Origin: an uncultured bacterium
Lineage (GTDB): Bacteria > Bacillota > Clostridia > Oscillospirales > Ruminococcaceae
Assembly: GCA_905214265.1 (NCBI GenBank)
Contig: CAJMLQ010000002.1
Location: 8,182-72,181, forward strand
DNA length: 64,000 nucleotides
Reading direction: 5' to 3'
The notes below the pieces were generated by a model. It saw only the letters and a list, made by a program, of their open reading frames with translations, made no database searches and was not told where the DNA came from. Below, piece by piece: positions 7,813 through 64,000 of the stretch (its first letter is position 1; each line of letters starts with the position of its first letter). The position numbers and the translations under genes are program-made.

Positions 7813-7874
7813 GAACGCCATATTTGAAATGGTGCAAGCGGAAAAAACGGCGGTGAAACGGAACCCTAAACAGC

Positions 7875-10374: not shown

Positions 10375-10403
10375 TTGCGAAAACAGAGAGGCGGCGATAT
10401 AAT
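10375..10403 (+). promoter_or_regulatory. Sigma-70-type promoter of the ABC operon (TTGCGA-17-TATAAT)
   Basis: TTGCGA 10375-10380, 17-nt spacer, TATAAT 10398-10403, located 37 nt before ATG 10440. Confidence 0.5.
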
Positions 10404-10439
10404 GAAACCACGATCCAAAATCAAAGGAGGCAATTCAAA

Positions 10440-12068: not shown

Positions 12069-12084
12069 TCCGGATCAGCCGCCT

Positions 12085-12124
12085 GCTTCACGGAACAGTA
12101 TTGTCTGTTCCGTGAAGCTTTTTT
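12085..12124 (+). terminator. Strong intrinsic terminator/attenuator between SBP and permease genes
   Basis: Perfect 14-bp stem GCTTCACGGAACAG (12085-12098) / CTGTTCCGTGAAGC (12105-12118), 6-nt loop, T6 run 12119-12124. Confidence 0.7.
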
Positions 12125-12141
12125 GGAAGGGGTGCGTTTCA

Positions 12142-46950: not shown

Positions 46951-47325
46951 ATGGAACCATACAAACTAGGTGAAATGGAAGGAAGGCTGGCGGAGCTGAT
47001 CTGGGCCCATGCGCCGGTCAGCACCCGGAATTTGATCGGACTGTGCGCGGAGGCCTTCGGATGGAAACGGACAACAACCTACACTATGCTCAAGCGGCTG
47101 TGCGAACGGGGTATTTTTGCCAGTCAGGACGGGATGGTGACGGCGTTGCTGGCCCGGGAGGATTTTCAGGCCGCGCAGGGGGAACAGTTTCTCAATGAGA
47201 CCTTCGGCGGTTCGCTGCCGCGGTTTTTGGCGGCGTTTACCCGGCGCAGATCTTTAAGCGGGCAGGAAATCCAGGAGATCCAGAAGCTGATCGAGGACTA
47301 TGACAGTGGGGAAGGGGAGAAATAA
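46951..47325 (+). CDS. BlaI/MecI/CopY-family transcriptional repressor
   Basis: 124-aa winged-helix pattern GEMEGRLAELIW...STRNLI...WKRTTTYTMLKRLCERG. Followed 5 nt later by an M56 sensor gene. Confidence 0.85.
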   Translation: MEPYKLGEMEGRLAELIWAHAPVSTRNLIGLCAEAFGWKRTTTYTMLKRLCERGIFASQDGMVTALLAREDFQAAQGEQFLNETFGGSLPRFLAAFTRRRSLSGQEIQEIQKLIEDYDSGEGEK

Positions 47326-47330
47326 ACGGA

Positions 47331-50212: not shown

Positions 50213-50236
50213 CCTTTCCAAAAGGGGAAAATAGTC

Positions 50237-50266
50237 GATCGCGCCGGGGAAGATACCGGCGCGATC
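50237..50266 (-). terminator. Hairpin terminator closing the Tad-linked array
   Basis: Perfect 11-bp stem GATCGCGCCGG / CCGGCGCGATC with an 8-nt loop. A T-rich tract (GACTATTTTCCCCTTTT) follows on the minus strand. Confidence 0.55.
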
Positions 50267-50287
50267 AGGAGAGTAGAACTCTTTTGT

Positions 50288-50785
50288 TTACAGCCGCTGG
50301 CCGCATTCTGTACAGAATGCGCTTCCTGGAGGATTCACAGTGCCGCAGGCAGGACAGGCCCCACCGCTGTCGCCGGTCTCCACGGCTGGGGGCGGCGCTG
50401 GTGCGGGAGAGGCTTGCGGGACAGTAGACTCCACGGGGGATGAAGAAGACTTTTCCGGCTGAGCAGCGGATGGAGAAACGGGCTCCAAACAGGCCTGTTT
50501 TGCCGCTTCGGCTTTGGCGGCCTTTGCTTCAGCGCGTTCCGCCTTCCGGCGGAGCCGTTTGGCGCTGGGAACGTAGCAGATCCACGCCATGAGAATTCCC
50601 GTCAGCAAAAGGACTGCCGCCGCGATCAGGCCGATGGGAGCGTAACGAGCCAGGTGTCCCCAAAAGGTGCTGCTGGTGAGGAGCCGCGTTCCGCTGCCCA
50701 GATACGCGCCATACAGAGAGGGGAGAAGCACTGCGAGCCCAACGGCGCCGAGCACAGTCCCCAGGACAAACAATTTCTTTTTCAT
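50288..50785 (-). CDS. Two-TM membrane protein with cytoplasmic C-terminal zinc ribbon
   Basis: Two TM helices, a basic/Ala-rich helix (RRKAERAEAKAAKAEAAK), a Pro/Ser linker, and CPACGTVNPPGSAFCTECG. Confidence 0.7.
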   Translation of the reverse strand: MKKKLFVLGTVLGAVGLAVLLPSLYGAYLGSGTRLLTSSTFWGHLARYAPIGLIAAAVLLLTGILMAWICYVPSAKRLRRKAERAEAKAAKAEAAKQACLEPVSPSAAQPEKSSSSPVESTVPQASPAPAPPPAVETGDSGGACPACGTVNPPGSAFCTECGQRL

Positions 50786-50809
50786 ACCGGCATCCTGCCT
50801 TTCCGTAGT

Positions 50810-53041
50810 TTATTCCGTTCCGCCTCCAGCGTCCGGGCGGTAAGATCCGCCAATCTGCCGATAAAAATCGGACAGCGGCGTGAGCTGGTCCTCGGCCAGG
50901 ATCTGCTCCTCCGGGACGCCGACGATGTAATCCTTCTCATCGTATACGCCGTCCTGCATCCGGATACGCAGGCGGCGGCGGTATTCGTCCGGCTGCTCGG
51001 TGACAGTGAAGCGGATGATGTAATTGTTTACAAGGAACTGGCTGACTTGTTGGTAGATGCTGTCCAGCTTTCCGGCCTCTGATGCGCGGAGGAATTTTCC
51101 GCCGGTCCGTTGGGAGATACTGCTCATGTAGGAGGATTCCGCGGCTGCGAAGCCAACGCTGTAGACGGCGATGCCCTGGCTTTCCAGTGAGGAAACAACT
51201 TCCTCCATATAAGCGGGGTCGGAACCGTCTGCGCCGTCGGAGAGCAGGACGATGACCTTGGAGCCGTTCCGGGTGCGCAGGGCGTCCGCCGCTGCGGCAA
51301 GTCCGGAGGCAATATTGGTTCCGCCGCCGGCCTGGAGGGAGTTAATGGCCCGGCTGACAGCGGAAGCGGACTCCGTGACCGGGCAGCGCAGGTCGGCTCC
51401 GTTGGAAAAGCTCACCAAGCCGACGCCCACGCCGGCAGGGACGCTGCGGACAAAATTTGTGACCGCCTGCTGGGCGCTACGAAGGTTTTCCCCTTCCATA
51501 CTGCCGCTTTCGTCCACGACCAGGCAGACAGAAAGGGGTTCATCCGGCGTTCCGGCGCTGTCCGGCGGGATGATGGTGAAATCGGATACCCCGGCGTTCA
51601 GATCGGTCACGGTGAAATCCGAGGCCGTGTACAGGCTGCCGTCCTCCCGGTCCCTGGAGAGACTGACGTAAACGTCGACCTGAGGATAGGAGTCGGTATT
51701 GACCCGGCTGATGAGCAGGCCGGAGCGGAGGCGGTCGATGGAATCCCGCAGGTAATCCGCGAAGCTTTGCCGGCCGGTCCAGGCAGTATAGAAGGCGTTG
51801 CTGCTGGAAAGTCCCTGGGTGAGAGAAGCAAAAATTTCATCGGTGACGCTGGACACCGCTTCATCGTCCGCTGTTCCGGCTTGGTTGTAGGCGGAGATCA
51901 ACGCGGCGCGTTCCGAGGAGAGGGAGCCAAAGCCGGAATCGCTGGTGAGGAACTCGCTGAGGAGGCTGCTGGACTTATCCTCTTCCCCGACCTGGTGGTA
52001 GAGCTTGGCCAGAGCCAGAAGGGTAGCCGGTTCCTTCTTCCGGAACAGGCCGGAAGCGTTTTCCAGGTAATTGATGGCGCGGCGGGCGGGCAGCTGGTCG
52101 AGCTGATCCTGGATCGCGTCGATGCGCTGCTGCTGTTCCGCCAGCTGAGCCTCGATCTTCAGTTGCTTCTTGGTGCTGAGATCACCGGTGAGGCCGGATT
52201 GGATCTCGTCGTACCGGATGTAGGCGTCGGAGAGCTTTTCCTGCAGCTTCTGCGCCTCCCGGTCGTTTTCACCGGTATTCCAGGACTCAGACGCCGCCAG
52301 GGCTAGGGCAGAGGCGTTTGCAGCGGACGGATCAGACCTTACGGCTTCTTCTGCCAGCTCCACGGCCTCCGCCGTGTTCCCCTGGCAGAGGGCGGCCTGG
52401 GCTTGGGCCTTCAGGGACAAAACGTCGTTTTTCGTGGAAAGGGTGAGCAGGTCCGTTTTCACGGAAGCAATGGAAAAGTCCAGGGAGATCGCCCGCTGGA
52501 CGTTGACCAGGCTGGCGGCATGCTCCTTGTCCTTTTGGGAGAGTCCTAGGGAATCCCGCACCTGGCTTAAGAAGAGGAGAAGCTGGCTCTCCTTGATCTC
52601 GGAGCCGTCCCGCGCTTCGGTACAGAGGTCATAAATCTGGGAGGCCATGTCGTTTTTGTGATTTTTCAGGTAGCTCCGCGCTTCGTCAGCGCAAATTTCA
52701 TACCGCCCCTGCCAGCAGAGGGAAAGCAGGATCAGATCGGCGGACTGGGGATTTTCGTTGCGGCTGTAAGCCTGTTCCGCCAGGCTCCGGGCCTGGGAGT
52801 AGTCCTGCATGTCTATGAGCAGGCAGGCCATGTAGTTTTGTTTGGCGCTGGTTTTCTGAGCCTGGAACAGCCGGAACCCGGTCACGCCGGAAAAGGCTAA
52901 CGCCCCAATAGCAACGGCGATGCACAGCGCTTTCGTGATGGAAAAGCCCTTCTTTTTCCGGAGGTCCAGCAGGAAGAAGACCACCGCGGCGATGAGCGCG
53001 GCGCCGGCCACGCTGAATTTTACAATTGTCAGGATATTCAT
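50810..53041 (-). CDS. Membrane-anchored TPR and von Willebrand factor A (vWA) domain protein
   Basis: Two N-terminal TM segments, TPR-like helical repeats, MIDAS motif VCLVVDESGSM with downstream LLSDGADG. RBS GGAGG. Confidence 0.8.
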   Translation of the reverse strand: MNILTIVKFSVAGAALIAAVVFFLLDLRKKKGFSITKALCIAVAIGALAFSGVTGFRLFQAQKTSAKQNYMACLLIDMQDYSQARSLAEQAYSRNENPQSADLILLSLCWQGRYEICADEARSYLKNHKNDMASQIYDLCTEARDGSEIKESQLLLFLSQVRDSLGLSQKDKEHAASLVNVQRAISLDFSIASVKTDLLTLSTKNDVLSLKAQAQAALCQGNTAEAVELAEEAVRSDPSAANASALALAASESWNTGENDREAQKLQEKLSDAYIRYDEIQSGLTGDLSTKKQLKIEAQLAEQQQRIDAIQDQLDQLPARRAINYLENASGLFRKKEPATLLALAKLYHQVGEEDKSSSLLSEFLTSDSGFGSLSSERAALISAYNQAGTADDEAVSSVTDEIFASLTQGLSSSNAFYTAWTGRQSFADYLRDSIDRLRSGLLISRVNTDSYPQVDVYVSLSRDREDGSLYTASDFTVTDLNAGVSDFTIIPPDSAGTPDEPLSVCLVVDESGSMEGENLRSAQQAVTNFVRSVPAGVGVGLVSFSNGADLRCPVTESASAVSRAINSLQAGGGTNIASGLAAAADALRTRNGSKVIVLLSDGADGSDPAYMEEVVSSLESQGIAVYSVGFAAAESSYMSSISQRTGGKFLRASEAGKLDSIYQQVSQFLVNNYIIRFTVTEQPDEYRRRLRIRMQDGVYDEKDYIVGVPEEQILAEDQLTPLSDFYRQIGGSYRPDAGGGTE

Positions 53042-53056
53042 GCCACGCAGGCCTCC

Positions 53057-54493
53057 TTATTCCATATTCCGCACGTTTACGTCAAGCCGGGTCAGGCGGG
53101 GGAAAATCTGCCGGACCGGCGCGTAATCCGCAGTGGGATTGTCCCGGAGCATCAGCACCCGGATGGACGGGAGCTGGGTCACGGCGGACAGGTCAGAGAC
53201 TCGGTTGCCGTACATCCACAGCTCCTCCAGAACAGGCAGTCCGGCGACCGGAGAGAGGTCGGTCACGGTGTTGTCTGAAAAATCCAGATAAGTGAGATTC
53301 TGCAGGGCGGAGATTGGGGCAAGACTGGAGATACGGTTGCCCCAGATACCCAGGGAGGTCAGCCCGGTGAAAGCGGAGAGACCGGAGATATCGGAGATGT
53401 TGTTCCAGCCCAGGCAGAGCTCCGTCAGCGCTGAGAGATCCCGCAGAGCACTGATGGAGGTGATGCCATCATGGATCAGCGAAACAGAGGAAAGCCGTGG
53501 GTGTCCGCTGATTCCGGTGAGGCTCAGGTCCTCCTGAAAGGCAATGGCTACTTCTTCAAGGAAGGGCATGTATTGCAGATCGCTGAGAGTCCCCAGGGTC
53601 CCTTCATTGGTATAGAAGGAGCCGGAGTTGATCTGATATTCCCGTTCGGTGAAATGGACGCTGGCGGCGTCGAGATAGTTGCTGCCGGCAATGGCGATAC
53701 GGCGGATTTGGGCCGCATCCTCATCATAGATGGGGGAGCTGTAGGAAAGGCCCAGCTGGCTCCGGACATAGCGCTCCATCTCCGGGTCTGCGAAGGTCAG
53801 CTCTTTGGGAGTGGCAGTAATCGTGTATTCCGCTGCCGCAGCGGCGCTTTGATAGCCCAGGCTGTTCACTGCGGCGGCTCGAATCTCTGTTTTACCGCTG
53901 GGGAGTACCAGAGGCTCTGTGTACAGAATAGATTCCGGAGTGGGGTCCGTGCCGTCCAGAGTGTAATAGATGCTGTCCCCTTCGCGGGAGGGGCGGATTT
54001 CCACCAGCTGGTAGGTGGGGTAGCTGCCGGACTCCAGGGAGAAGGTGGGCGGCTGGGGCTTGGTCTGGCTGTTCAACTCCTGGATTTCCGTGCTGTCCGT
54101 TTGATGGACGGCCTTATCCAGCAGCTCGGCAGCCTCTTCCAACCGGTCGCTTTGCAGGTAGAGGTCAGCCAGGGAGAGGTAGGTGTCAGCGCCGGAGGGG
54201 TCCAGGTTCAGGGACTGCAGAAATGCGGCTTCCGCATTTTCTGGGCTATCCGCGCCCAGGTTGGCAGCGCCCAACCCATAATACGCCCGGGCGTTTTTGG
54301 GGTCCGCTTGGATTGCACGGGTGTAGGCCAGAATGGCGTTTTCATAATCCATTTCTTCCAAGTAGCGGTCGCCCAGGGCCAGCTGCTCCCGGGCAGTTCT
54401 ACTTCCGGCGGTCAGAGCTGTGACGGTGACCGCCGCAACGGCGATCACCGCGATGGCAATCAGCGCCGAAATCACAAATACCTTTTTCTTCAA
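53057..54493 (-). CDS. Membrane-anchored TPR / Fn3-associated (CHB_HEX_C-like) / leucine-rich-repeat protein
   Basis: N-terminal TM, TPR block, YYTLDGTDPT segment, then ~22-aa internalin-type LRRs (LTELCLGWNNISDISGLSAFTGLTSLGIWGNRISSLAPIS...). TTG start with RBS AGGAGGA. Confidence 0.8.
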   Translation of the reverse strand: MKKKVFVISALIAIAVIAVAAVTVTALTAGSRTAREQLALGDRYLEEMDYENAILAYTRAIQADPKNARAYYGLGAANLGADSPENAEAAFLQSLNLDPSGADTYLSLADLYLQSDRLEEAAELLDKAVHQTDSTEIQELNSQTKPQPPTFSLESGSYPTYQLVEIRPSREGDSIYYTLDGTDPTPESILYTEPLVLPSGKTEIRAAAVNSLGYQSAAAAAEYTITATPKELTFADPEMERYVRSQLGLSYSSPIYDEDAAQIRRIAIAGSNYLDAASVHFTEREYQINSGSFYTNEGTLGTLSDLQYMPFLEEVAIAFQEDLSLTGISGHPRLSSVSLIHDGITSISALRDLSALTELCLGWNNISDISGLSAFTGLTSLGIWGNRISSLAPISALQNLTYLDFSDNTVTDLSPVAGLPVLEELWMYGNRVSDLSAVTQLPSIRVLMLRDNPTADYAPVRQIFPRLTRLDVNVRNME

Positions 54494-54510
54494 CTCGATT
54501 CCTCCTGCTG

Positions 54511-54672
54511 TCAGCGTCCGCCGCTGTTATCCCGGTAAAAAGCTTCCAAACGGCCTTTGATCTTCTTCCCCGAATGCCGCAGGCAGAGGGAGACGATGAC
54601 TGCGGTCACCAGGACGATGGCCATTCCAGCGATTCCGCCGTAAAAAAGAAGGGTTCCGGTAGTCCATTCCAT
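54511..54672 (-). CDS. Unlisted 53-aa single-TM micro-protein
   Basis: Not in the ORF track because it is under 60 aa. AGGAGG lies 7 nt before ATG 54672. MEWTTGTLLFYGGIAGMAIVLVTAVIVSLCLRHSGKKIKGRLEAFYRDNSGGR*. It fits exactly between the kinase and LRR genes. Confidence 0.55.
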   Translation of the reverse strand: MEWTTGTLLFYGGIAGMAIVLVTAVIVSLCLRHSGKKIKGRLEAFYRDNSGGR

Positions 54673-54684
54673 TCTGCGTCCTCC

Positions 54685-56976
54685 TTATTCCGTCCAGCCG
54701 CCTGCCCGGAGTTCGCTGTCCAGTTCCTTTAGCATTTCCATCTGAAGGTCCTGCTCTTTGGAACTGTCGTATTTTTCGAAGGCGAGGCTGCTGTTTTCAA
54801 AGAATTTCCGGTAATTCCGCTCCGCGTTGGCCTTCTGCGCCTCTATATCAGCGTAGAGAAAGGCAAGTTGCATGTAGACCCGGTAATCATCGGGGTATTT
54901 TTTCTGCATTCCGGCCAGGGTCTCCTCACATTCGGCGTAGCGGCCCAGATTGTGGTAGAGAATGGCAATATTGTTCATGAGATAGAAGCGGGTGTATCCC
55001 TTTTGCAGCAGGCTCTGGAAGCAGGAGAGAGCCTTGTCTCCGTAGGCGGCGGCCTCTTCGCCGGTTGACGCGGCGGAAAGGGCGGCATAGACTCCGCCCA
55101 GCGCCTCGGTGACGGCCAGGTTCTTTTCTAGGGGCAGCCGTTCCAGGGCCTTTTCCAGAATGGAAACTTGGGAGACAGAGTCTCCGGCGGAAGCATAGAT
55201 GCTGTTGAGGGAAAGGGCGGTGCGCTCGATAAGGGTGGAACTGTCAGTCTGTTCAAAAACGGAGAGGAAATCCGCACGGGCGGTGTCCGTGTCGCCGGAG
55301 GCCAGCGCGATCTCGCCTTCCGCCAGCTGGATGCTCAGGGAATCCACCTCGCGCTCCCGGGCGGCGTCCACCACCTGCTGCGCCCGGTCGAGATTTCCGA
55401 TTTTTGCCAGAGAAATGGCAAAATCCCGGTAATAATCCGGGTTGGCATCGTTGCGCTGCACCGCCTTCTGGTAGCTGGTGGCGGCTTCTTCATAATTTTC
55501 CAGGTCAAAAAAGGCGTTGCCGCAGATGAAGTCCAGATTGGCGCGGCGGATATTGTCCGACTCGGTTTCTAACTCAAAGGGCAGGTAACGGACCGAATCG
55601 ATATAGGCGATACAGGTTTTTGGGTCCCCCTGCTGGTAGAGGGCCAGCGCCTTAAGGTAGTAGGCGTCGATCCGGGAGTTGAAAAGGGTGGCCGCCTGGT
55701 CGGCGCAGAGGACGGCGCTGTCGTAATTCCCTTCCGCTACATCGGAGAGCCCAGCGTCTACTGTGGAGAAATACCGATCCAGCTTTTCAGTTCCCATCCG
55801 GTTCCAGCCGTCGATAGTGCAGAGGGCGCAGGCCGCGAAAGCGGCGGTGAGCAGGATCGTCGCCGCAGTCCCTTTGGCCTGGTGGGCCCGGTAGGTACGG
55901 TCGAATTTATGGATGTTCTGGAAGGCCCGGAGCATTTCCTCGGCTGATTGGAAGCGCTTTTTGGGGTCCGGCTCCATGGCTTTGTTGATGATATAGCAGA
56001 GGCCTTCCCCCAGGCCGCTTTTCTGCGGATCCAGCGGGGCCGCGCCGTAGAGGGCGGAGTTGGGCTTCGTCCCGGAAGCGAGGTGATACAGGGTCGCGCC
56101 CAGGCTGTAGATGTCCGATTGCGCAGTTAGCGTTGCGGCCGAGGCTGGAGCGGAGGAAGGTTCGGGCATCGGCATTGCAGAAGGCCCGCCATACTGGGTA
56201 GCGCCGGGATCATCCGGGCTGATCTGCGTCGCGCCAGGATCGGGGCCGGTTGGAACAGTGAATACAGTTGCGCCGGGGTCTGGCGGGGAAATCTGCGTTG
56301 CGCCGGGGTCCGAGGGCGGAGATGAAGGAGGTGCAGCAGGGCTGCCGTACTGAGTTGCGGGATCTGGAGAAGCGGAGAGCGGTGTGGCCGCAACTCCGCT
56401 GGTTCCGGTGCGGTGCCGGTACTGTTCCGGAGGGGAGTAGCCCTCGCTGGTCCCCAGGGCAGTGTTCTCACCGGGACGCAGGGCGCGGGAAATGTTGAAA
56501 TCAATGAGGCAGATGTCCCCGTCCGGGGTCAGCATCACGTTGGCCGGTTTGATATCGCAGTGGAGGATGGGCGGCTTCTGTTTATGAAGGTACTGGAGCG
56601 CCTCGCAGAGCTGGGTACCCCACTTGACGACCTCCTTCCGGGAAAAGCGGCGGCCGCTGTTTAGAAGCTGGGCAAAGTTTTCCCCGGGGATGAAGTCCAT
56701 GACTGTATAGACCTCCCCGCCGATCTCGAGGAAGTTGTAGAGGATGGGGAGATAGGTGTGCTTGAGATTTTTGAGGATATCGGCTTCAGCGCTGTCCTGG
56801 ATCTTTCCGCGCACAGCGGATTTCATCTGCTTAACGACCACCTGGTTATGGAGCTTCAGGTGCTCAGCGCGGTAGATGATCCCGCCGCCGCCGCTGCCGA
56901 TTTCACATTCGATCCGGTAAGTGCCGTCCAGCACCTCTCCGGGCCGGATACGGCTGGTTTCCGGTGTGTTGTTCAC
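54685..56976 (-). CDS. Hanks-type Ser/Thr protein kinase with TM segment and extracytoplasmic TPR domain
   Basis: Gly loop IGSGGGGIIY, VVVKQM Lys, catalytic loop HCDIKPANVML, DFN, SPPE, SDIYSLG. TM AATILLTAAFAACALCTI, then TPR repeats. GTG start after AGGAGG. Confidence 0.9.
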   Translation of the reverse strand: MNNTPETSRIRPGEVLDGTYRIECEIGSGGGGIIYRAEHLKLHNQVVVKQMKSAVRGKIQDSAEADILKNLKHTYLPILYNFLEIGGEVYTVMDFIPGENFAQLLNSGRRFSRKEVVKWGTQLCEALQYLHKQKPPILHCDIKPANVMLTPDGDICLIDFNISRALRPGENTALGTSEGYSPPEQYRHRTGTSGVAATPLSASPDPATQYGSPAAPPSSPPSDPGATQISPPDPGATVFTVPTGPDPGATQISPDDPGATQYGGPSAMPMPEPSSAPASAATLTAQSDIYSLGATLYHLASGTKPNSALYGAAPLDPQKSGLGEGLCYIINKAMEPDPKKRFQSAEEMLRAFQNIHKFDRTYRAHQAKGTAATILLTAAFAACALCTIDGWNRMGTEKLDRYFSTVDAGLSDVAEGNYDSAVLCADQAATLFNSRIDAYYLKALALYQQGDPKTCIAYIDSVRYLPFELETESDNIRRANLDFICGNAFFDLENYEEAATSYQKAVQRNDANPDYYRDFAISLAKIGNLDRAQQVVDAAREREVDSLSIQLAEGEIALASGDTDTARADFLSVFEQTDSSTLIERTALSLNSIYASAGDSVSQVSILEKALERLPLEKNLAVTEALGGVYAALSAASTGEEAAAYGDKALSCFQSLLQKGYTRFYLMNNIAILYHNLGRYAECEETLAGMQKKYPDDYRVYMQLAFLYADIEAQKANAERNYRKFFENSSLAFEKYDSSKEQDLQMEMLKELDSELRAGGWTE
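56194..56367 (-). repeat. Intragenic degenerate tandem repeat encoding DPGATQ-type units
   Basis: DPATQY / DPGATQIS / DPGATVFT / DPGATQIS / DPGATQYG within the kinase gene. The DNA shows recurring GCGCC(A/G)GG(A/G)TC units. Confidence 0.7.
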
Positions 56977-56992
56977 GGAGCTGCCTCCTGTC

Positions 56993-58462
56993 TTATTGTG
57001 CAGTGAAAAGATAATCGACGCCTTTGGCGGAAAAGCTCACCCGGTCGCCGTTTTTCAGCGGCACGGGGACGTTGGCGGCCAGGGGCTGGCCGTTGATATA
57101 GGTCCCGGCAGGGGAGCCCAGATGGATCAGCACGTAAGCGCCGTTCCGTTCCTCGATCCGGGCGTGAAAACGGCTGACTGCGTTGATGTCTGCGGCAAAT
57201 TCGAAGTCCGATTGCTGGTAGCCCTTGGTCACGTCGAAACGGCCGATGCTGAAGGCTCCGTCGTGGATGCGGATGTCGATCAAGGAAGGAGGGCAGCTGC
57301 CGGTCTGAGGGTTGCAAAAATTTCCCACATAGCGGAGATACGCGCCGGATTCCACCATGTTGTCATCGCCAATGATGGTGTTTCCATCGTCCGCCGGAGA
57401 CATGGGAGCCGGCGCGGGGCTCGGAGATGAGGACGGCATTCCTGCGCCGGCGGCTGCGCCGCCGAGGAACTCTCGGCGTTCCGGTGCGGGAGCAGGCTGC
57501 TTTGGCTTGTTGCCGAAGAGCTTTCCGAAAAGAGGCGCTTTCTCCTCTTTTTTCTTGGGGGAGTCTTTGGCGGGCTTGCCGCCGGAGAGGATAGCTTCCA
57601 AATCGTCATCGCTGTCAGAGGAAAGGCCCAGGTCCAGGGATTCGCTCTTTTTCTTGCTTTTATCAGGCTTTTCCGTCTTTTTCAGGGAAGCCGCCGGAGC
57701 GGAATTCCAGCCTCCCGGAGCTGCACCGCCGGAGTTCCAGCCACCGGAGGCCGGCTGCTTTGCGGGGGGATTGGGCTGCTGGACCGGAGTCTGCACAGAC
57801 GGTTGCTGGACCGGCTTTTTCTGGATAGGCGGCGGATTCTGCGGGGGCTGTTGAGATTGCTGGGGCTGCTGAGGCGGAACCGGGTTCGGATTTTGGACCG
57901 GTGCGCCGCCTTGTTCCAGAGCGAGACGGAATTCGTACAGGGAGAAATCCCGGCGCATCAGGCATTTGTAAAGGGCCGCGGTCAGCTGGCCGCCGTCCGG
58001 GACTTGGCAGCGCTCCAAAAGTCCGGCGAACAGCTCTTTGATGTCCTCGTCAGCCGCGCAGGGGCCCTGCACCGGGAAATACAGGTAGCCGATATCCATG
58101 GCGGAGCGGTCCAGATAGATATACTGGGGATCGAAGCAGAAATAGCGGTAGTCCAGGAACCAGTCTTCCCCATCCAGAAGGGGGTCCACCAGCTTGTGAA
58201 GCAGCCGGGTAAACTCGCTCAGCGTAAAGGTTCCGCTCAGATAGGCGAGGCTCACGCGATTGCCGAAATCGTACTTCAGGACGGTTTCGCCGTTGAGGCC
58301 GCTGACCGAAAAGGGGCAGAGAAAGGGCGGCCGGTCGCCCCGGATGGTCTCAAAGGCGGCCGTATCCAGCGGCAGCCCCGCGGGGAAGGTGCATTCTACA
58401 TAGCCGCGGCCGAGGTAGCTGCCCAGCTCCAGCCGGATTCCATTTGACAGTGTCATGTCCAT
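56993..58462 (-). CDS. FHA-domain protein (unknown N-terminal domain, P/Q/K-rich linker, C-terminal FHA)
   Basis: C-terminal FHA signature IGRFDVTKGY...VSRFHARIEERNGAYVLIHLGSPAGTYINGQPL. No TM. Start ambiguous (58474, 58462 or 58456). Confidence 0.85.
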   Translation of the reverse strand: MDMTLSNGIRLELGSYLGRGYVECTFPAGLPLDTAAFETIRGDRPPFLCPFSVSGLNGETVLKYDFGNRVSLAYLSGTFTLSEFTRLLHKLVDPLLDGEDWFLDYRYFCFDPQYIYLDRSAMDIGYLYFPVQGPCAADEDIKELFAGLLERCQVPDGGQLTAALYKCLMRRDFSLYEFRLALEQGGAPVQNPNPVPPQQPQQSQQPPQNPPPIQKKPVQQPSVQTPVQQPNPPAKQPASGGWNSGGAAPGGWNSAPAASLKKTEKPDKSKKKSESLDLGLSSDSDDDLEAILSGGKPAKDSPKKKEEKAPLFGKLFGNKPKQPAPAPERREFLGGAAAGAGMPSSSPSPAPAPMSPADDGNTIIGDDNMVESGAYLRYVGNFCNPQTGSCPPSLIDIRIHDGAFSIGRFDVTKGYQQSDFEFAADINAVSRFHARIEERNGAYVLIHLGSPAGTYINGQPLAANVPVPLKNGDRVSFSAKGVDYLFTAQ

Positions 58463-58473
58463 CGTTCCTTTCA

Positions 58474-59787
58474 TCAGGGATTTGCCTGAAAGCGGATCAA
58501 GCTCCAGCCGCTTTCCGTTTGTACGGCGGCCGCTCTTTCGGAGAAGGGCTTGGCGCCGATATATTGCAGGGGTACGGCGATCTCGCCGCGAAGGCTGATG
58601 TAGCCCCAAAGGCCGTCTTTTTCTACTGCGGCGACTCCTTCAGAGAAGGAACAGGCGCTGTCCCACTCAAAGGGCAGGACCTCCTGGCCGTTTTTGTCGA
58701 GAAAGCCCCATTTTCCGTCCTTGCAGACTGCGGCCAGGCCGTCGCTTTCTAAAAAGGGGTAAGCGTCGGTATAGCCGGTCTCGGAGATCCTGGTTCCTGT
58801 GGCGTCGACGAGATAGGTAAGCTCGCCGGATTTGGCGAAGGCTCTGCCGTTTCGATAGGCACAGCCCTTTTCGTCCAGGGAAAAGCCGTCGAATTCGTCG
58901 GTTTGGTCCTCGCTGGAGGAATTCTGAAGGACCCATTTCCCGTTCCGGCAAACCGCGCGTCCACCGTCGGAAAGGGTTCCAATGAAGTCGTATTCAGTGG
59001 CGCCGATCCGCATTTCTGCGTTGGCCAGCCGCCATTTTCCATTGATGCGCAGGGAGGTCACGCCTTGGCCGAAGGGGGCGATGCTGTCGGCAGCCTCTTT
59101 GCAGAGGGCTGTGCGGAAACCGTCGGTGTCGATGACGATGACTTGTCCGTTTTCGATAACAGCGGCGCTGCCGTTTTCAAAGTCCATGGCCTGATCAAAA
59201 ACGCAGGGAATCGTCAGATCGCCGTCAGCGTCCAGATAGCCCCACTTTCCCTCCAGACAGACCGCTGCAAATCCGTCGGACATGGAGCGGATATCCTCGT
59301 ATTTAGCATAGCTTTTGGTGAAAGCATAGCGGACCGACTCATAGTAGTCCGTCAGTTCCTCGCTGTCCAGCCGGGCGATGCCCTCTTTGAGGGTATCCAG
59401 GCCGCTTTGGTATTTGTGGTTGAGAAAGTAATGATCCGCGGTTTCCCGATAAAGGTCCGCATCGGCGGTATCCGCGTTCAGCATGGTCAGAAGGGTGGCC
59501 AGGTAGGGTTTTTCCTCGCCCAGCGCCCGATAGCAGTCCGCCAGCGCCCGCTGCACTTCACCGGTACGCCCGGTCTGAATTTCCGCGGCCTCCTCCAGCA
59601 GGGGAACGGCCCGGACGTAGATCTGGTCGTCGATGTAGGTTTGGGCCTCCTGGAACAGTTCGTCCTGCCGGGCGCTGTTCCGGGAACCGGCGGTGACAGC
59701 GGCCAGCCAGACAATGGCGGCGGCCGCCGCGAGGAGGATGGCTAGTAAGATCTTCTTGCTTTGATACAAACAAATCCCGCCTTTCAC
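58474..59787 (-). CDS. Membrane-anchored TPR-like and WG (KWG) repeat protein
   Basis: N-terminal TM. Repeated GKWGYLDADGD / DGKWGFLDKNGQEVLPFEWD / DGLWGYISLRGEIAVP units. GTG start. Confidence 0.75.
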   Translation of the reverse strand: MKGGICLYQSKKILLAILLAAAAAIVWLAAVTAGSRNSARQDELFQEAQTYIDDQIYVRAVPLLEEAAEIQTGRTGEVQRALADCYRALGEEKPYLATLLTMLNADTADADLYRETADHYFLNHKYQSGLDTLKEGIARLDSEELTDYYESVRYAFTKSYAKYEDIRSMSDGFAAVCLEGKWGYLDADGDLTIPCVFDQAMDFENGSAAVIENGQVIVIDTDGFRTALCKEAADSIAPFGQGVTSLRINGKWRLANAEMRIGATEYDFIGTLSDGGRAVCRNGKWVLQNSSSEDQTDEFDGFSLDEKGCAYRNGRAFAKSGELTYLVDATGTRISETGYTDAYPFLESDGLAAVCKDGKWGFLDKNGQEVLPFEWDSACSFSEGVAAVEKDGLWGYISLRGEIAVPLQYIGAKPFSERAAAVQTESGWSLIRFQANP

Positions 59788-59802
59788 AATCCGGTCCGCA
59801 CG

Positions 59803-60441
59803 TCACAGGCGGAACAGGTAGCAGAGAAACGTTCCGATGAATAAAAAGGGAACCAGGGGCACCCCGTCCTTCCGGCCCAGCTTTTTCCGAACCATCTGGA
59901 CGATGGAAAAAATGGCGCAGAGGAGTAGCCCGTAAAATACCGCCCCGACGATCCGCGTCGCAGTCAGATAAAGGCCCATCAGCGCCACCAGCTTGACATC
60001 GCCGCCGCCCAGCTGCCTCCGGCTGAGAAAATAAGCGATGAGAAATACCAGGCCCATCAGCACGGAGCCGATCCCCGCCAGAATCAAGCGTTCCAGCCCC
60101 GCCTCTGCGCCTCCTAGAAAGGAGAGCCCAGTCAGGCCCAGAAAAATGCCGCCCATCCAGAGCAGCAAGCGGTTGGGAACGATCTTACGCCGCAGGTCGG
60201 TTACAGACAGTACGTAAAGAAACCAAAGGGCGGTTCCGGCAAAAGCCATTTCCACCCAGTCCATGTGGTCACGCTGCCAGAAGCCGAGAACCCCATAGGG
60301 GATCGGCAGCAGAAAGGCGGCTCGGACCAAAACGTCCGGCTTCTGCCCCTCGGCAGAAGGCTCCAGAAAACGCGGAAGCACCCATATCGCCAGCACCGCG
60401 GCGATTAGACCCGCACAGACTGCAATTGCCGTCGTTGCCAA
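59803..60441 (-). CDS. A24-family prepilin (Flp-type/TadV-like) leader peptidase
   Basis: Polytopic membrane protein with the two Asp contexts SVTDLRRKIVPN and GGGDVKL. TTG start. Confidence 0.8.
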   Translation of the reverse strand: MATTAIAVCAGLIAAVLAIWVLPRFLEPSAEGQKPDVLVRAAFLLPIPYGVLGFWQRDHMDWVEMAFAGTALWFLYVLSVTDLRRKIVPNRLLLWMGGIFLGLTGLSFLGGAEAGLERLILAGIGSVLMGLVFLIAYFLSRRQLGGGDVKLVALMGLYLTATRIVGAVFYGLLLCAIFSIVQMVRKKLGRKDGVPLVPFLFIGTFLCYLFRL

Positions 60442-60465
60442 TTTGCTTCACTCACTTTCCTTGAC

Positions 60466-61290
60466 TTAGGGAGAGGATTTCTGAGCGCTGCCGTCTCCGT
60501 CCAGCCAGGCGCTGGCCGCGGCCCGCTGCACAATGTGAAAACTGTCACTGGGGAGTGGAAGCAGCGGAAACCGAACGGAAATGTCGTATTCCACGATCAG
60601 GTCGATGGTCTTGCCATCGTAAAAAAGCCGGGATTCGCCGAAATCCAGACCGTCCCAACCGCCTTTGACTCCATAGGCGGTGAGAAAACCGTCTGCATCT
60701 TGACCGCCGGCGTCCGTCAGGTACTTGGGGACTAGGGCTGAGGCCAGCGGCACCAAGACCAGCCGACTTTTGCCGTATTCTAAGGCCCCTTGAGCGCCCA
60801 GGTAGAGAAAAGCGATGGCCGTCTGCTTGGGGTTTTTGGCTAGGGAGATCAGGGAACTACCGGTCTGAATGGCATCGTCCACGGCGGCGTCTCCGGCGGT
60901 AATCAGGCTGTCCAGGTCCTTTTGCAGTTCGTCAAAGTCCAGCTCCCCGCCGGTCAGATCGCTTTGGGTCTTGCCGAAGGCGCTGGTCAGGGTATTGACG
61001 GAATCCCACAGGGTGTTAAGGTTTTTTGCGGATTCATTGACGCTCTGGGCCTCCGTGCCGGCTTTTTTGATGAAGCTGTCGTGTTTTTCCTGAAGGCCGG
61101 AGGCGCTGTACAGGTAGCTGTAGGAGGAAAGCTCTCGGACTGTTTGGGTCAGGGCATACTGGATCCGGTCGTGGACGATGTAGACGTTGGTCAGGTTGAT
61201 CATGAAAGCCATGATGCCGATGAAGATAACCAGGGCAATGGAGGCTTCCACCACGATGGAGCCTCGCTGGGAGTTTTTCAGTTCCCGCAT
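60466..61290 (-). CDS. TadE-like pseudopilin-type protein
   Basis: N-terminus MRELKNSQRG|SIVVEASIALVIFIGIMAF matches the TadE/TadF class (G, then x4 E, then a hydrophobic helix). The ATG overlaps the TadG-like stop region. Confidence 0.7.
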   Translation of the reverse strand: MRELKNSQRGSIVVEASIALVIFIGIMAFMINLTNVYIVHDRIQYALTQTVRELSSYSYLYSASGLQEKHDSFIKKAGTEAQSVNESAKNLNTLWDSVNTLTSAFGKTQSDLTGGELDFDELQKDLDSLITAGDAAVDDAIQTGSSLISLAKNPKQTAIAFLYLGAQGALEYGKSRLVLVPLASALVPKYLTDAGGQDADGFLTAYGVKGGWDGLDFGESRLFYDGKTIDLIVEYDISVRFPLLPLPSDSFHIVQRAAASAWLDGDGSAQKSSP

Positions 61291-61291
61291 C

Positions 61292-63700
61292 TCAGTACCC
61301 CCTTGTCTGCGAATAGGAGAAGCTGCCGGAAAAGGGGTCGCTCTGCTGGCCAAAGACGTTCTGGACGTAGGGCATGAACAGCATGGGGAGGGTGGTGTCC
61401 ACTGTCGTCTGGATGGCGGTGTAGGAATCTGCCAGACGATAGTCCAGGGAGGTCAAAGGGTTTTGCCGGTAGTGGTTGACGTTCATTTCGATAAGGTTTC
61501 CCGTCCGGGCGGTAAGAGTCTCGCCGTCCCGGAAGATCAGGAGCAGAAGGGTGATGTAGCCTTCATAGGAGAGACCGAAGTTCTTGGTTTTGCCAGCTTC
61601 TCCGCCGCCCTCGCCGCCGGAGCTTCCGGAGACCAGGGAGCCGAAAAACTGGCTGGGCTTCAGAACCCAGTCGGTTTTTCGCTTATAAAGGGCCACTGAC
61701 TCTCCGTTCAGGAGTTTGTTCAGATCATTGGCGGTTTCAGCTGCTGTCAGGGCGGCGCGGAGGGCCTCCCGGACAGCCAGATGGATCAGAGGGTTGCCGG
61801 CGGACAGGATTGAGGCCACAGTATTGAGGGCGCTGCTGATCTCACTGTCTGTGTAGGTGTAGATGAAGTTCAGGACATAGCGGATGCCGAAAATCGTGGA
61901 GCGGACGGTGGAAACGTTATCCGTAGCGCTCTGCTTTCCGGAATAGACGTACTCCAGCTCGCTGCGGTAAAGGTAGTTCGCAGCAGGAGATTTTTCGATG
62001 CCGGTCAGGGAAACGTCGAGTTTGTTGTTGTCCGGATCCTTCTCATGCTGGACGTTGGTGGAGTAGCAGGAAAACATGCCGGTATCGTATTCCACCATCA
62101 GGAGCTTGTGGAGAAGGTCGGTGCCGTTGCCGGCGGCTGCGCCGTTGAACTGATCGGCAACATCGCCCGTCATTTTCGAAGCAAGCTCATCCTCCTTGCC
62201 GTTGGTGACGGAGGGAGTGCTGCCGGAGCCGCCGGAGCCCGATCCGCCGTAAGTGCGGGCGTTCCAGATTGCATCAGGAATTTCGCCCACCACCAGATCA
62301 GGGGTGGCAAAGACGTTTTTCAGGATGCTTTTCGTCCGTTCGTTCAGGTCGGAGCGGTTGCTTTCGGCAGTGGATTTTTTACTGGAATCCCCACCGGAAA
62401 AGTAGGACTTCAGGGTGTTATAAAGATCGGGATTTACATTTCGGGCATATTTCCAGTTCAGAGAGGGGACTGGAACGTGGTTGAGGCGGTCGGGTTTGGC
62501 GTCCTTGGGTGCCCATTTATAATCGGAGAAAGTTTTGCCGTTGTTGAAGGCAATGTCATCAATATTTTCCTTCATATCGTCGATCTTGTCCTGGTTCTCC
62601 GCCAGGGTGTCGGCGAATTCGGTGAAATCGTAATCGAACAGGGCTTCGTATTCCCTGATCTGCTCTTCCATGGCGGACTGGACTTCGGAGGAGCAGCTGG
62701 AAAGCTGGCCGCGCATGGAACTGATCTTATCCTGGATATCGCCGATCTTTTTATCGATCTTTTTGCAGGTCGACTGGATCTTTTTGAGATTTTTCTCATA
62801 AGGGTCGTCGTACATCTTCTTCATGGTGGAGATGTCGCCGTCCGCGGCTTTGGCGTCGGCCTTGATCTTGTCGTAAAAATCATCGATTTCTTTTTCGTAG
62901 GCCTTGACCTTGTCCTTGTCGGCCTTGTTTTTAGAGTCCTTCAGGGCGTCAATCTTGCTCTGACGGTCCTCAATCTGTTCGTAGTACCAAATGATGTTGT
63001 CCGCGTAGATGGACATATTGGAGTTGAAGATATTCAGCTGGCTCTCATTAAACCCGTCGTTGATGTTGAGCTGGTCATAGAGATCCTTGTAAAGGCCGTT
63101 GAGGTCCTCCAGCATGTCGTCGATCTCGGTTTTTTTCTTGAGAATTTTGCTGTCGCTCCCCAGGTTTTCCAGGGCTTCCACTGCGCTGAAAATATCCAGC
63201 TCCAGGAGCTGGGCCGCTACACGGTACTTCATATAGTCGCCCACCTGGTTTTGGAGGACGGCGGAGGTCCCCAGGCTGGAATTCGAAAGGGTCTGGACGG
63301 AGGCGGAGGCCTTCATATTGCGGTAAGGGTTTAAGAGATTGCCTCCGCTGCTCTGGAAAAGCTGCTGCACGCGATCCACGAGGTTGTGGACATCCTGGTT
63401 TGCGACACCGGTGTAGATGGATTTGGCGGGGTCGAAAACGGCTAGGGCGTAGTTTTCATAACCGTTGGTGGCACTTTCGTCCTGGCTCAGGGCGAAAAGG
63501 CCGTACATTTCCTTGAGCACGCTGTCGTACTGGCTGAGAACAGAGGACGCATACAGCTGATTGGCGTCGCTGGCTGTCTGTTGGGCGGTTTTGAAGCGGG
63601 CAAGATCGCTCATGATGCCGGTGAACGCCACGGTGGGCAGGAGAATAAGCGTGACAAACACCGTGACGACGCCACGGTGATCCTTTTTCAGCCGGAACAT
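61292..63700 (-). CDS. Giant TadG-like protein (N-terminal Tad pseudopilin-type anchor plus ~750-aa helical/coiled-coil body)
   Basis: MFRLKKDHRGVVTVFVTLILLPTVAFTGIMSDLARF N-terminus (TadE/G-like). Long K/D/E-rich coiled-coil stretch and Gly/Ser linkers. RBS AAAGGAGGAG before ATG 63700. Confidence 0.7.
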   Translation of the reverse strand: MFRLKKDHRGVVTVFVTLILLPTVAFTGIMSDLARFKTAQQTASDANQLYASSVLSQYDSVLKEMYGLFALSQDESATNGYENYALAVFDPAKSIYTGVANQDVHNLVDRVQQLFQSSGGNLLNPYRNMKASASVQTLSNSSLGTSAVLQNQVGDYMKYRVAAQLLELDIFSAVEALENLGSDSKILKKKTEIDDMLEDLNGLYKDLYDQLNINDGFNESQLNIFNSNMSIYADNIIWYYEQIEDRQSKIDALKDSKNKADKDKVKAYEKEIDDFYDKIKADAKAADGDISTMKKMYDDPYEKNLKKIQSTCKKIDKKIGDIQDKISSMRGQLSSCSSEVQSAMEEQIREYEALFDYDFTEFADTLAENQDKIDDMKENIDDIAFNNGKTFSDYKWAPKDAKPDRLNHVPVPSLNWKYARNVNPDLYNTLKSYFSGGDSSKKSTAESNRSDLNERTKSILKNVFATPDLVVGEIPDAIWNARTYGGSGSGGSGSTPSVTNGKEDELASKMTGDVADQFNGAAAGNGTDLLHKLLMVEYDTGMFSCYSTNVQHEKDPDNNKLDVSLTGIEKSPAANYLYRSELEYVYSGKQSATDNVSTVRSTIFGIRYVLNFIYTYTDSEISSALNTVASILSAGNPLIHLAVREALRAALTAAETANDLNKLLNGESVALYKRKTDWVLKPSQFFGSLVSGSSGGEGGGEAGKTKNFGLSYEGYITLLLLIFRDGETLTARTGNLIEMNVNHYRQNPLTSLDYRLADSYTAIQTTVDTTLPMLFMPYVQNVFGQQSDPFSGSFSYSQTRGY

Positions 63701-63753
63701 TCCGCTCCTCCTTTCAGATGCTATCAAAAGCCGCGCCTGCGGCGGAATTTTCG

Positions 63754-64000
63754 TCAGAAGAACCGCCCGATGACCTCGGCGGCTTTGGAGAACACTTTTC
63801 CGATGGCTTCGGAAATGCCGAATTTCTGGTCCACCGCGTAGGCAATGTCAAAGGCGATGTCGCTGGTGCGGATGAACTCGTCCGGGTCGTTGACCACACA
63901 GGCTGCCCGGGCCTTCAGGGTCCACTGAGCGGGGAGGCCCAGAAAAGCCGGATTGATGATGGGCTTGATGGACTGTGAGGCAACGGCCTGCAGTTCCCGG
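63754..64000 (-). CDS. 3' end of an upstream gene running off the window (81 codons plus stop)
   Basis: Open minus-strand frame from the window edge to TGA at 63754-63756: ...AFLGLPAQWTLKARAACVVNDPDEFIRTSDIAFDIAYAVDQKFGISEAIGKVFSKAAEVIGRFF*. It is absent from the track because no start lies in the window. Confidence 0.5.
   Translation of the reverse strand, partial: RELQAVASQSIKPIINPAFLGLPAQWTLKARAACVVNDPDEFIRTSDIAFDIAYAVDQKFGISEAIGKVFSKAAEVIGRFF

Follow-up and report, generated by a model that had tools for sequence, protein, structure and literature searches.

Tad pili are major colonisation factors, and their best-studied example in the gut is that of Bifidobacterium. On attachment and the control of surface organelles in Oscillospiraceae and Lachnospiraceae, which are hard to culture and belong to the core human gut microbiota, almost nothing is known to our knowledge. 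The operon described here belongs to an uncultured gut bacterium of the Clostridia, placed in the Ruminococcaceae by GTDB, whose nearest relatives in the species scan presented below are Oscillospiraceae. The larger part of the operon lies at the end of a stretch of 64,000 nucleotides (contig CAJMLQ010000002.1 of assembly GCA_905214265.1, positions 8,182 to 72,181; hereafter the window). It combines the genes for a Tad pilus with those for a PP2C phosphatase, a Hanks-type Ser/Thr kinase, and an adaptor protein composed of a DUF6382 and an FHA domain. Judged from the sequence, this arrangement suggests that commensals may switch the assembly of the pilus on and off via threonine phosphorylation.

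Parts of the arrangement have been described in other systems. The Tad-like Kil system of Myxococcus xanthus, a killing system, contains several FHA proteins and an FHA-fused ATPase, and contact-triggered phospho-signalling has been proposed for it (PMC8460266). In class III CpaF an FHA domain is found at the N-terminus (PMC12019362), and the tad genes of Bdellovibrio adjoin FHA/TPR genes (bioRxiv 10.64898/2026.07.08.737194). The accessory set of the type VII secretion systems (T7SS) T7SSe and T7SSf comprises the kinase TseD, the PPM phosphatase TseF, the DUF6382+FHA protein TseJ/TsfJ, the peptides TseK/TseH with a single transmembrane (TM) segment (Garrett et al. 2024, PMC11217815), and TseI, a large Ig-like surface protein (PMC11217815). 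The pseudokinases TraF and YukC/EssB have been described as interaction hubs of the type IV secretion systems (T4SS) and T7SS of Gram-positive bacteria (PMC13037476). In the literature searched, no description was found of a Hanks kinase, PP2C and FHA set in a monoderm or clostridial Tad operon, nor of DUF5702, Flp1_like and WG repeats in such a Tad context. The initial annotation of the window, which was made from the letters without database searches, had regarded the coupling of an FHA/kinase pair to Tad genes as undescribed. For FHA proteins the coupling was already known from Kil, class III CpaF and Bdellovibrio, and within the literature searched the claim stands for the combination of kinase, PP2C and FHA protein in a monoderm Tad locus. 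Among the signalling proteins, too, DUF6382+FHA protein, kinase, PPM phosphatase and single-TM peptides are the named T7SSe components TseJ, TseD, TseF and TseK/H (PMC11217815).

A complete Tad operon with an embedded signalling set

Eleven consecutive genes on the minus strand occupy positions 50,288 to 64,000 of the window and are separated by -1 to 53 nt, as given by the open reading frames (ORFs) and their translations (Table 1). Counted from the 3' end of the operon, the intergenic distances are 24, 15, 17, 12, 16, -1, 15, 24, 1 and 53 nt. ORFs and Pfam matches agree here with the initial annotation, whose central claim, that genes for Tad pseudopilins and a prepilin peptidase are joined to an FHA/Hanks-kinase core in one operon-like array, has been borne out. 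The closing hairpin it had noted is likewise present and is the strongest terminator-like site in a 15-kb scan; it comes after the last gene and is itself followed by ACTATTTTCC. The downstream neighbour of the operon is the GluQRS gene. The array forms the distal 13.7 kb, the 3' two-thirds, of an operon of ~19 kb and 17 genes. It is close to certain that a PP2C, kinase and FHA set is embedded here in a Tad operon, and the arrangement of the genes is not due to chance because the same order was found in dozens of species.

The off-window 5' part was found by exact-protein look-ups of contigs that carry the genes of the window. Identity to the window is 100% for contig L001 in the region concerned and 99.69% over 13,535 nt for contig L090. 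L090 extends further upstream, where it encodes, in order, a Zip transporter, PP2C, a TadZ-like protein, TadA, TadB, TadC, a Flp-like prepilin, and TadE. The Tad genes whose presence beyond the right edge of the window had been left as a check are thus found directly upstream. The operon starts with the gene for PP2C (238 aa, PP2C_2 E=9.4e-15), ~5.2 kb past position 64,000 (L090:1473-2189), and does so in L086 as well. The earlier statement that the locus has no PP2C is an artefact of the window edge; inside the window none was found by phmmer with a PstP catalytic domain and by a motif regular expression. The gap of 273 nt between the Zip transporter and PP2C genes in L090 contains a promoter-like TTTACA-17-(TG)TATTTT, ~45 nt 5' of the PP2C start codon. 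A second gap, of 232 nt, lies between flp and tadE in L090 and contains a 13-bp hairpin (L090:6759-6791). This hairpin may act as an attenuator that provides a surplus of pilin transcript over the downstream genes. An Rfam scan of the window and L090 yielded no match at the gathering score, either 5' of the operon or behind flp, including riboswitches such as those for c-di-GMP. The same layout is found in L086, an 89% relative, and in L003 and L007, which are 72% relatives. Two independent assemblies, L001 (1-174) and L002 (1-176), both end inside flp at the same point, and in L091 (4575-5348) tadB is split into ORFs of 199 aa and 56 aa. Strain variation, problems of assembly, or copies in the population that are phase-variable or pseudogenised may account for these breaks.

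TadA is a 431-aa T2SSE protein (PF00437 E=1.9e-58) encoded directly upstream of the window region in L086 and L090. Of the two platform proteins, TadC (354 aa) matches T2SSF PF00482 with E=1.5e-12, and TadB (257 aa), with 4 predicted TM helices, matches PF00482 weakly and below the cut-off (E=3e-4). The TadZ-like protein of 345 aa is recognised by AAA_31 (E=6e-7, 30 bits with a cut-off of 27). Its TadZ-like_ARD receiver domain reaches only 20.4 bits, below the cut-off of 27.4, and its counterpart by position in L087 has a recorded match to PF21194. The Flp-like prepilin of 74 aa (L090:6460-6684) scores 33.6 bits with Flp1_like PF16982, the cut-off of which is 33.5. According to pilin alignments (L003-L045), a leader of ~30-40 residues precedes a mature pilin of ~44 aa, with a conserved processing site, DERG/[LV]S[GP]VVV, which has no Glu5/Tyr6. 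This site resembles the archaeal class III signal peptides (RG/VSP) more than the G/XXXXEY site of bacterial Flp.

The first TadE-like protein, the gene of which has its 3' end at 63,754 and runs out of the window, is complete in L001 and L090 (206 aa), where its N-terminus reads ESG/MVVVE; the full-length copy of L086 scores 23.8 bits with PF07811 (cut-off 22.9). The second has a prepilin-like N-terminus (QRG/SIVVE), and its position and motif are kept in all loci. Between the two lies the DUF5702 protein, with a prepilin-like N-terminal TM segment (HRG/VVTVF), a coiled-coil middle rich in K, D and E, and the C-terminal DUF5702. Such a protein was found in every Tad-type locus examined, and the homologues P0028, P0044 and P0053 carry PF13400 Tad in addition. 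The size of the DUF5702 proteins ranges from ~800 to ~1400 aa (homologues P0025-P0052). What these proteins conserve is a prepilin segment at the N-terminus and DUF5702 at the C-terminus, and the highly charged, coiled-coil-like middle varies in length; it might form a tip or stalk element of variable length. The prepilin peptidase contains both Asp motifs (SVTDLRR and GGGDVKL) and has no methyltransferase domain. With the TadA ATPase, two T2SSF platform proteins, an A24 peptidase, and TadE-type minor pilins together with a TadG-like protein, the operon holds the full gene complement of a monoderm Tad/Flp (type IVc) pilus. This pilus represents a Clostridia-specific subtype, the markers of which are the DUF5702 protein as TadG-like giant pseudopilin and the WG-repeat membrane protein.

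Table 1 Features of the array in the window. Domains were assigned with Pfam and scores compared with the family cut-offs
Feature	Position	Strand	Domain match	Remark
Protein with two TM helices and zinc ribbon, 165 aa	50288-50785	-	PF13240, 26 bits (cut-off 25)	Last gene of the operon
TPR + VWA protein, 743 aa	50810-53041	-	VWA E=6.5e-23	
TPR + CHB_HEX_C/Fn3_assoc + LRR protein, 478 aa	53057-54493	-	LRR_4 E=2.3e-24	
Single-TM peptide, 53 aa	54511-54672	-		
Hanks-type Ser/Thr kinase, Pkinase + TPR, 763 aa	54685-56976	-	Pkinase E=1.7e-33	
DUF6382 + FHA adaptor, 493 aa	56993-58474	-	FHA E=3.4e-13; DUF6382 E=6.4e-12	
WG-repeat protein, 437 aa	58474-59787	-	WG_beta_rep PF14903 E=6e-47, 5 repeats	431 aa by other gene callers
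TadV/CpaA-type prepilin peptidase, 212 aa	59803-60441	-	Peptidase_A24 PF01478 E=2.5e-13	
Second TadE-like minor pilin, 274 aa	60466-61290	-	TadE, 16.9 bits, below cut-off	
TadG-like giant pseudopilin, DUF5702, 802 aa	61292-63700	-	PF18960 E=2.3e-33	
TadE-like minor pilin, 206 aa in full	63754 to beyond 64000	-	PF07811	Only the C-terminus in the window
Terminator-like hairpin	50236-50267	-		Closes the operon; 12-bp stem, 9 G-C pairs, 8-nt loop

The signalling proteins and a putative phosphothreonine switch

The DUF6382+FHA adaptor is a cytoplasmic protein in which DUF6382 (residues 1-190) is connected to the FHA domain (residues ~395-493) by a disordered linker of ~185 residues rich in P, Q and K. 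The linker dominates the AlphaFold model of the full-length protein, which has a predicted local distance difference test score (pLDDT) of 64 and a Foldseek list consisting mostly of FHA matches; its N-terminal domain is modelled with confidence. The FHA domain finds its best Foldseek matches in GarA, OdhI and FhaA. Its phosphothreonine-binding residues G411, R412, S434, R435 and H437 are found in every one of 36 homologues, and 34 of these have N468. A threonine in the linker, Thr366 (codon 57377-57379), occurs in 35 of the 36 homologues, although the linker otherwise cannot be aligned; it belongs to an x-T-[QE]-x motif and precedes the GR dipeptide of the FHA domain by ~45 residues. The linker (~57300-57900) also carries the short conserved motifs DD[DI]x[IA]xLSGG and GLFG..KK. 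These may be short linear docking motifs.

Modelled alone, DUF6382 attains a pLDDT of 88 and a predicted TM-score (pTM) of 0.83. [quoted passage not shown] The alignment of homologues reveals no conserved G-loop, catalytic Lys, HRD or DFG motif. Because of the kinase-fold matches and the missing catalytic motifs, DUF6382 is read with moderate confidence as a pseudokinase-like domain of EssB/YukC/TraF-like fold. A match to these pseudokinases at the sequence level was not found.

The kinase domain (residues 20-330) contains the motifs GSGGGG, K49, HCDIKPAN, IDFN and SPPE, which are conserved among the 35 homologues compared; by these motifs the protein is probably an active, non-RD kinase. A TM helix (370-388) follows, and the TPR region is predicted to be outside the cell. 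Between SPPE, the equivalent of APE, and helix alpha-F the domain is interrupted by a Thr/Pro-rich insert of ~100 residues (~190-290; ~56107-56409) with four to five DPGAT(Q) repeats in the window protein. A variable S/T-rich insert is found in every kinase homologue with locatable flanking motifs, and most contain ETQ[LV] or GATQ. The repeats are candidate autophosphorylation or FHA-docking sites. The 53-aa peptide encoded next to the kinase is predicted to have its N-terminus outside and its basic C-terminus inside the cell. The family motif is LLFYGGIA-TM-[ST]G[RK][RK]L..RLEEEYG. The conserved signalling core consists of the WG protein, the adaptor with its pseudokinase-like DUF6382 and FHA domains, the small TM peptide, and the kinase.

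The WG protein has a TPR-like region, WG repeats, and a single N-terminal anchor, and its bulk is predicted to be extracellular. The same topology is predicted for the LRR protein, whose internalin-like LRR region matches the InlA-like LRR family with E=1.2e-24, below the family cut-off. In the vWA protein two TM helices flank a basic loop, and the TPR/coiled-coil and VWA regions are predicted by the positive-inside rule to face outward. The MIDAS (metal ion-dependent adhesion site) motif DESGS...T...D is intact in the translation. The zinc-ribbon protein differs in that its disordered tail and C-terminal zinc ribbon are predicted to be cytoplasmic. The genes for the LRR, vWA and zinc-ribbon proteins form a lineage-specific accessory tail. 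They are confined to close relatives (72-100% identity), and LRR proteins are also encoded in L041, L087 and L088. The initial annotation had counted vWA with FHA and kinase as a signalling core. WG, FHA and kinase are indeed conserved, and it is the vWA, LRR and zinc-ribbon genes, limited to the close relatives, that do not belong to it. Calling the repeat proteins adhesin-type was an assumption, for WG, LRR and vWA are membrane-anchored and TPR-headed by prediction and could equally be sensors. The TPR heads of WG, LRR, vWA and kinase share only weak pairwise similarity, the best being that of WG and LRR (E=6e-5), which is too weak to claim a common origin.

One relative with the accessory tail, L006 (CAKXAF010000051.1), has been deposited in a metagenome-assembled genome (MAG) labelled 'uncultured thaumarchaeote'. 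The C-terminal part of its FHA protein is 91% identical to that of the window, the same kinase, peptide, LRR, vWA and zinc-ribbon genes are present, and the kinase gene is apparently split into two ORFs. The thaumarchaeote label is almost certainly a binning error.

On balance, and with some reserve, we favour the view that a monoderm Tad pilus is gated by this PP2C/kinase/FHA phosphothreonine switch. From the gene content and order, their conservation, the integrity of the motifs and the predicted folds, we infer the following phosphorylation and binding steps. The membrane kinase would sense a cue in the envelope or at the surface through its TPR ectodomain, and the surface proteins WG, LRR and vWA, with their TPR heads, would probably join in sensing. 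The kinase would then phosphorylate threonines of the TQ type in its own Thr-rich insert, in the adaptor (Thr366) and/or in the small TM peptide, and the FHA domain of the adaptor would read these phosphothreonines. DUF6382 might serve as an EssB/YukC/TraF-like hub that docks on the platform of TadZ, TadA and TadBC and licenses assembly or retraction of the pilus. PP2C would reset the switch. In an attractive variant of this model, phosphorylated Thr366 would bind to the FHA domain of the same molecule, as in GarA and OdhI. By analogy, the design would work like the PpkA-PppA-Fha1 pathway of the type VI secretion system (T6SS) and the kinase, phosphatase and TseJ set of T7SSe.

Conservation of the gene order and alternative explanations

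Fourteen DUF6382-FHA proteins were aligned, the alignment was used to scan one genome per GTDB species, and the operon proteins were mapped onto the returned loci with phmmer. The full DUF6382+FHA protein was found in 35 loci from Oscillospiraceae and other Clostridia. The carriers include Flintibacter faecis, Anaeromassilibacillus senegalensis, Oscillibacter, and many MAGs from termite, rabbit and human gut. Of the 24 species-level loci whose upstream sequence spans 9.4 kb or more, 23 keep the order of nine same-strand genes, TadA-TadB-TadC-Flp-TadE-DUF5702-TadE-A24-WG. In all of 33 loci the FHA gene is directly preceded by the WG gene, and in 24 of them it is directly followed by a Hanks kinase gene. 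The initial annotation had made its reading depend on a gene order conserved in relatives, and such conservation extends over about 23 species. As the FHA proteins of most carrier species are only ~26-33% identical to the query, the synteny is held by selection and not by recent common descent.

DUF5702 homologues served as a second anchor and yielded three more loci. In one of these, L087 from Lachnospiraceae, the order is the same and PP2C sits after the FHA gene. A second, L088, is rearranged such that the genes for an LRR protein, the kinase and the small peptide are upstream of tadZ, with WG and FHA still downstream. The third, L089, is considered below. In the locus of an Oscillospiraceae MAG (L009:8221-9925), WG and FHA are separated by genes for PP2C and for a second TadZ-like ATPase, which shows that the phosphatase has no fixed place in the operon. 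In distant relatives the small TM peptide gene lies between the FHA and kinase genes, the ectodomain of the kinase consists not of TPR but of a PQQ-like beta-propeller, and the kinase gene is always followed by the gene of a surface protein of ~1300 aa with SLH, He_PIG and InlB-B-repeat (Ig-like) regions.

The same genes could be explained differently, although we consider this unlikely: WG, FHA, kinase and PP2C, together with the LRR, vWA and zinc-ribbon proteins, would form a self-contained envelope-signalling or cell-surface module that does not regulate the pilus. It might control large SLH/Ig/LRR surface proteins or cell-wall processes and be co-transcribed with the Tad genes or merely adjoin them. 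A number of observations weigh in this direction or against the gating of the pilus. At L004:4959-14606 an orphan module is found that comprises a prepilin-peptidase remnant of 53 aa, WG, DUF6382-FHA, a peptide of 52 aa, a 975-aa kinase with a beta-propeller, and a 1198-aa He_PIG/SLH surface protein. There are no Tad genes in the 5 kb upstream, to the end of the contig, or in the 3 kb downstream. L005, from the same organism, likewise has WG, FHA, peptide, kinase and surface protein without neighbouring Tad genes. The signalling module of these two loci may be able to function alone, and the surface protein that always follows the kinase in distant relatives could be its real client. The module is also portable, since DUF6382-FHA occurs with T7SS as well. 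Conversely, L089 is a DUF5702-type Tad locus in which the Tad genes and WG are present without FHA or kinase; the switch is therefore dispensable for this pilus type. The species scan was anchored on the FHA protein and cannot give the fraction of such Tad loci that possess the module, and the kinase gene is not the next after the FHA gene in 9 of the 33 loci. On the side of the machine, TadA is of the minimal class I, with neither a disordered region nor an FHA domain, and no phospho-acceptor on a Tad core protein was identified. The structural support for the pseudokinase fold of DUF6382 is modest, with Foldseek E-values of 3e-4 to 4e-3, TM-scores of 0.4-0.6 and 10-17% identity. The fibre itself is atypical because the pilin, cleaved at ERG/VSPLV here and at G/LSGVV in relatives, lacks the canonical Flp motif G/XXXXEY with Glu5-Tyr6.

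Despite these points, the arrangement of the genes argues for a functional tie between signalling and pilus. The Tad synteny persists in 23 of 24 species at the low identity of most FHA proteins. The WG gene directly follows that of the prepilin peptidase, and its stop codon overlaps the start codon of the FHA gene (TGATG; -1 nt). In the lineage of the window a single unit from promoter to terminator holds the Tad genes, with PP2C before them at its 5' end and the kinase behind them near its 3' end. In the rearranged L088 the kinase gene has moved and yet stays with the Tad cluster. The orphan module of L004 reflects either a secondary loss of Tad or an independent function, and the remnant of a prepilin peptidase suggests the former.

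If the switch does act on the Tad machine, the output of the machine need not be an adhesive pilus. It is conceivable, though rather improbable, that the operon specifies a Tad-derived contact-dependent device, for killing or effector delivery as in Kil, or for DNA uptake. The FHA/kinase module would trigger firing on contact, and LRR, vWA and WG would recognise the target. An enrichment in FHA proteins is a hallmark of the Kil killing system of Myxococcus (PMC8460266), the pilin is atypical, the TadG-like protein varies and reaches a very large size (800-1400 aa), and the ligand-binding surface proteins differ between lineages. However, neither the operon nor its immediate flanks contain a toxin, immunity, nuclease or competence (ComEA/EC-like) gene, and all genes from tadZ to the peptidase have standard Tad counterparts. 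No feature of the locus discriminates adhesion from other outputs.

It is very improbable that the signalling genes are an anti-phage or conflict system, kinase-based or of the vWA 'ternary' type, that was inserted into a pilus operon: the kinase domain matches the PADLOC kinase models mad6, PD-T4-6 and PglW, and combinations of vWA, kinase, phosphatase and FHA have been discussed in conflict systems (PMC7159879), but the PADLOC matches are generic to kinase domains, the other six proteins tested gave none, no effector domain is present, the chromosomal position is stable across species, unlike that of a variable defence island, and the vWA protein is predicted to be extracytoplasmic. A defence system was rejected on account of the generic PADLOC matches, and the vWA-MoxR ternary system (Kaur et al. 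2020, PMC7159879) since its defining partner, the MoxR AAA+ protein or VMAP, is lacking.

The remainder of the window is common chromosomal sequence with no link to the operon; it encodes ABC transporters, a GH38-like protein, proteins for sugar-acid catabolism, GluQRS and a BlaI/BlaR1-like pair. The pair consists of a BlaI/CopY-like repressor of 124 aa and a BlaR1-like sensor-peptidase of 505 aa (46951-48848, plus strand) and lies ~1.4 kb away from where the operon ends. The first part of the window (1-13,000) has a G+C content of 0.47-0.54, compared with 0.56-0.63 elsewhere in the window; it contains ordinary genes, for an AraC-type regulator, an ABC-2 transporter and a solute-binding protein, and ORFs without a Pfam match (2868-4094, 6847-10195).

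Comparison with described systems

The machine encoded by the operon is most similar to those of monoderm Tad loci, such as tad2003 of Bifidobacterium breve and the locus of Eubacterium rectale, from which the structure of TadZ has been solved. They have in common two T2SSF proteins and only one ATPase of the TadA/CpaF family, TadE-type minor pilins with the G/xxxxE motif, a TadG-like protein, a short A24 peptidase, and the absence of a secretin. To these are added a ParA/MinD ATPase that is TadZ-like, with its receiver domain below the cut-off in the present locus, and a short pilin that is Flp-like apart from its processing motif. The present locus differs in the cleavage motif of the pilin, G/VSPLV or G/LSGVV in place of a site with Glu5-Tyr6, in the DUF5702 giant that takes the place of TadG, and in the WG-repeat membrane protein that belongs to its core. 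It differs further in that PP2C, Hanks kinase, DUF6382-FHA adaptor and small TM peptide are encoded within the operon.

A genetic tie between FHA-based phospho-signalling and a Tad machine is shared with Kil and class III CpaF. In those diderm systems the FHA domain resides on the ATPase or on other proteins, and no Hanks kinase/PP2C pair has been described in the operon. Here TadA is of the minimal class I and the FHA domain is part of a separate, pseudokinase-like adaptor. For this domain the best structural matches, GarA and OdhI of the Actinobacteria, are also alike in the position of a conserved threonine ~30-45 residues upstream of the FHA core. In GarA and OdhI this arrangement results in autoinhibition by intramolecular binding of the phosphothreonine to the FHA domain. 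The N-terminus of the adaptor, with its pseudokinase-like domain and long linker, is wholly different from theirs, and metabolic enzymes are not implied as targets.

In its logic the signalling set resembles the threonine-phosphorylation pathways of T6SS, PpkA-PppA-Fha1 with TagQRST in Pseudomonas aeruginosa and PpkA-TssL-Fha in Agrobacterium. In each case the operon of an envelope machine also contains the genes for a membrane-bound Hanks kinase with an external sensor region, for a PP2C phosphatase and for an FHA adaptor, and accessory envelope proteins are common to both. The periplasmic part of PpkA contains a vWA domain, whereas in the locus described here vWA is found on a separate membrane protein. 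The machine is Tad instead of T6SS, the cell is monoderm, and the adaptor has an additional pseudokinase-like domain. No orthology at the sequence level extends beyond the shared domains, the match to TagH/VI_FHA (E=4e-7) being far below the cut-off.

The closest counterpart of the signalling proteins themselves is the accessory set of T7SSe and T7SSf. Both have the DUF6382-linker-FHA protein, a PPM phosphatase, a kinase that sits in the membrane and has a helical ectodomain, and small peptides with a single TM segment, and the large Ig/SLH surface protein of the distant relatives parallels TseI. The DUF6382 proteins of Bacillaceae are only ~20% identical. No EssC/EccC FtsK-type ATPase, WXG100 or YukD-like gene is present among the genes of L090, L086 and L003 and the ORFs of the window that were examined. 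The operon is not a T7SS, as neither EssC nor WXG100 is encoded and only the accessory set is shared.

A wider proposal, which we put forward tentatively, is that the DUF6382 pseudokinase-linker-FHA protein, the Hanks kinase, PP2C, the TM peptide and variable surface proteins make up a portable assembly-checkpoint cassette of Gram-positive bacteria. Such a cassette, not recognised before, would plug into unrelated machines that span the envelope, namely the Tad pili of Oscillospiraceae and Lachnospiraceae and the T7SSe/f of other Bacillota, and DUF6382 would take over the role of hub that EssB/YukC play in T7SSb and TraF in the T4SS of pIP501. In gut commensals the deployment of the pilus would then depend on contact or on a ligand through exchangeable ectodomains (TPR, beta-propeller, LRR, vWA, SLH/Ig).

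With kinase, phosphatase and phosphothreonine reader hard-wired to a pilus machine, the conserved operon provides a concrete and testable model of regulation. Cultured carriers are available in Flintibacter faecis, Anaeromassilibacillus senegalensis, and Flavonifractor/Oscillibacter species. The model assigns a plausible role and fold to DUF6382 and DUF5702, places the WG repeat in a genomic context, and links three fields of study, namely the threonine-phosphorylation pathway of T6SS, the accessory proteins of T7SSc-f, and the pseudokinase hubs EssB/YukC/TraF. For a Tad pilus with a putative built-in threonine-phosphorylation switch, the portable module of which is shared with T7SSe, no earlier report was found in the literature searched, and the principle by which it would operate, the control of an envelope machine by phosphothreonine, is established.

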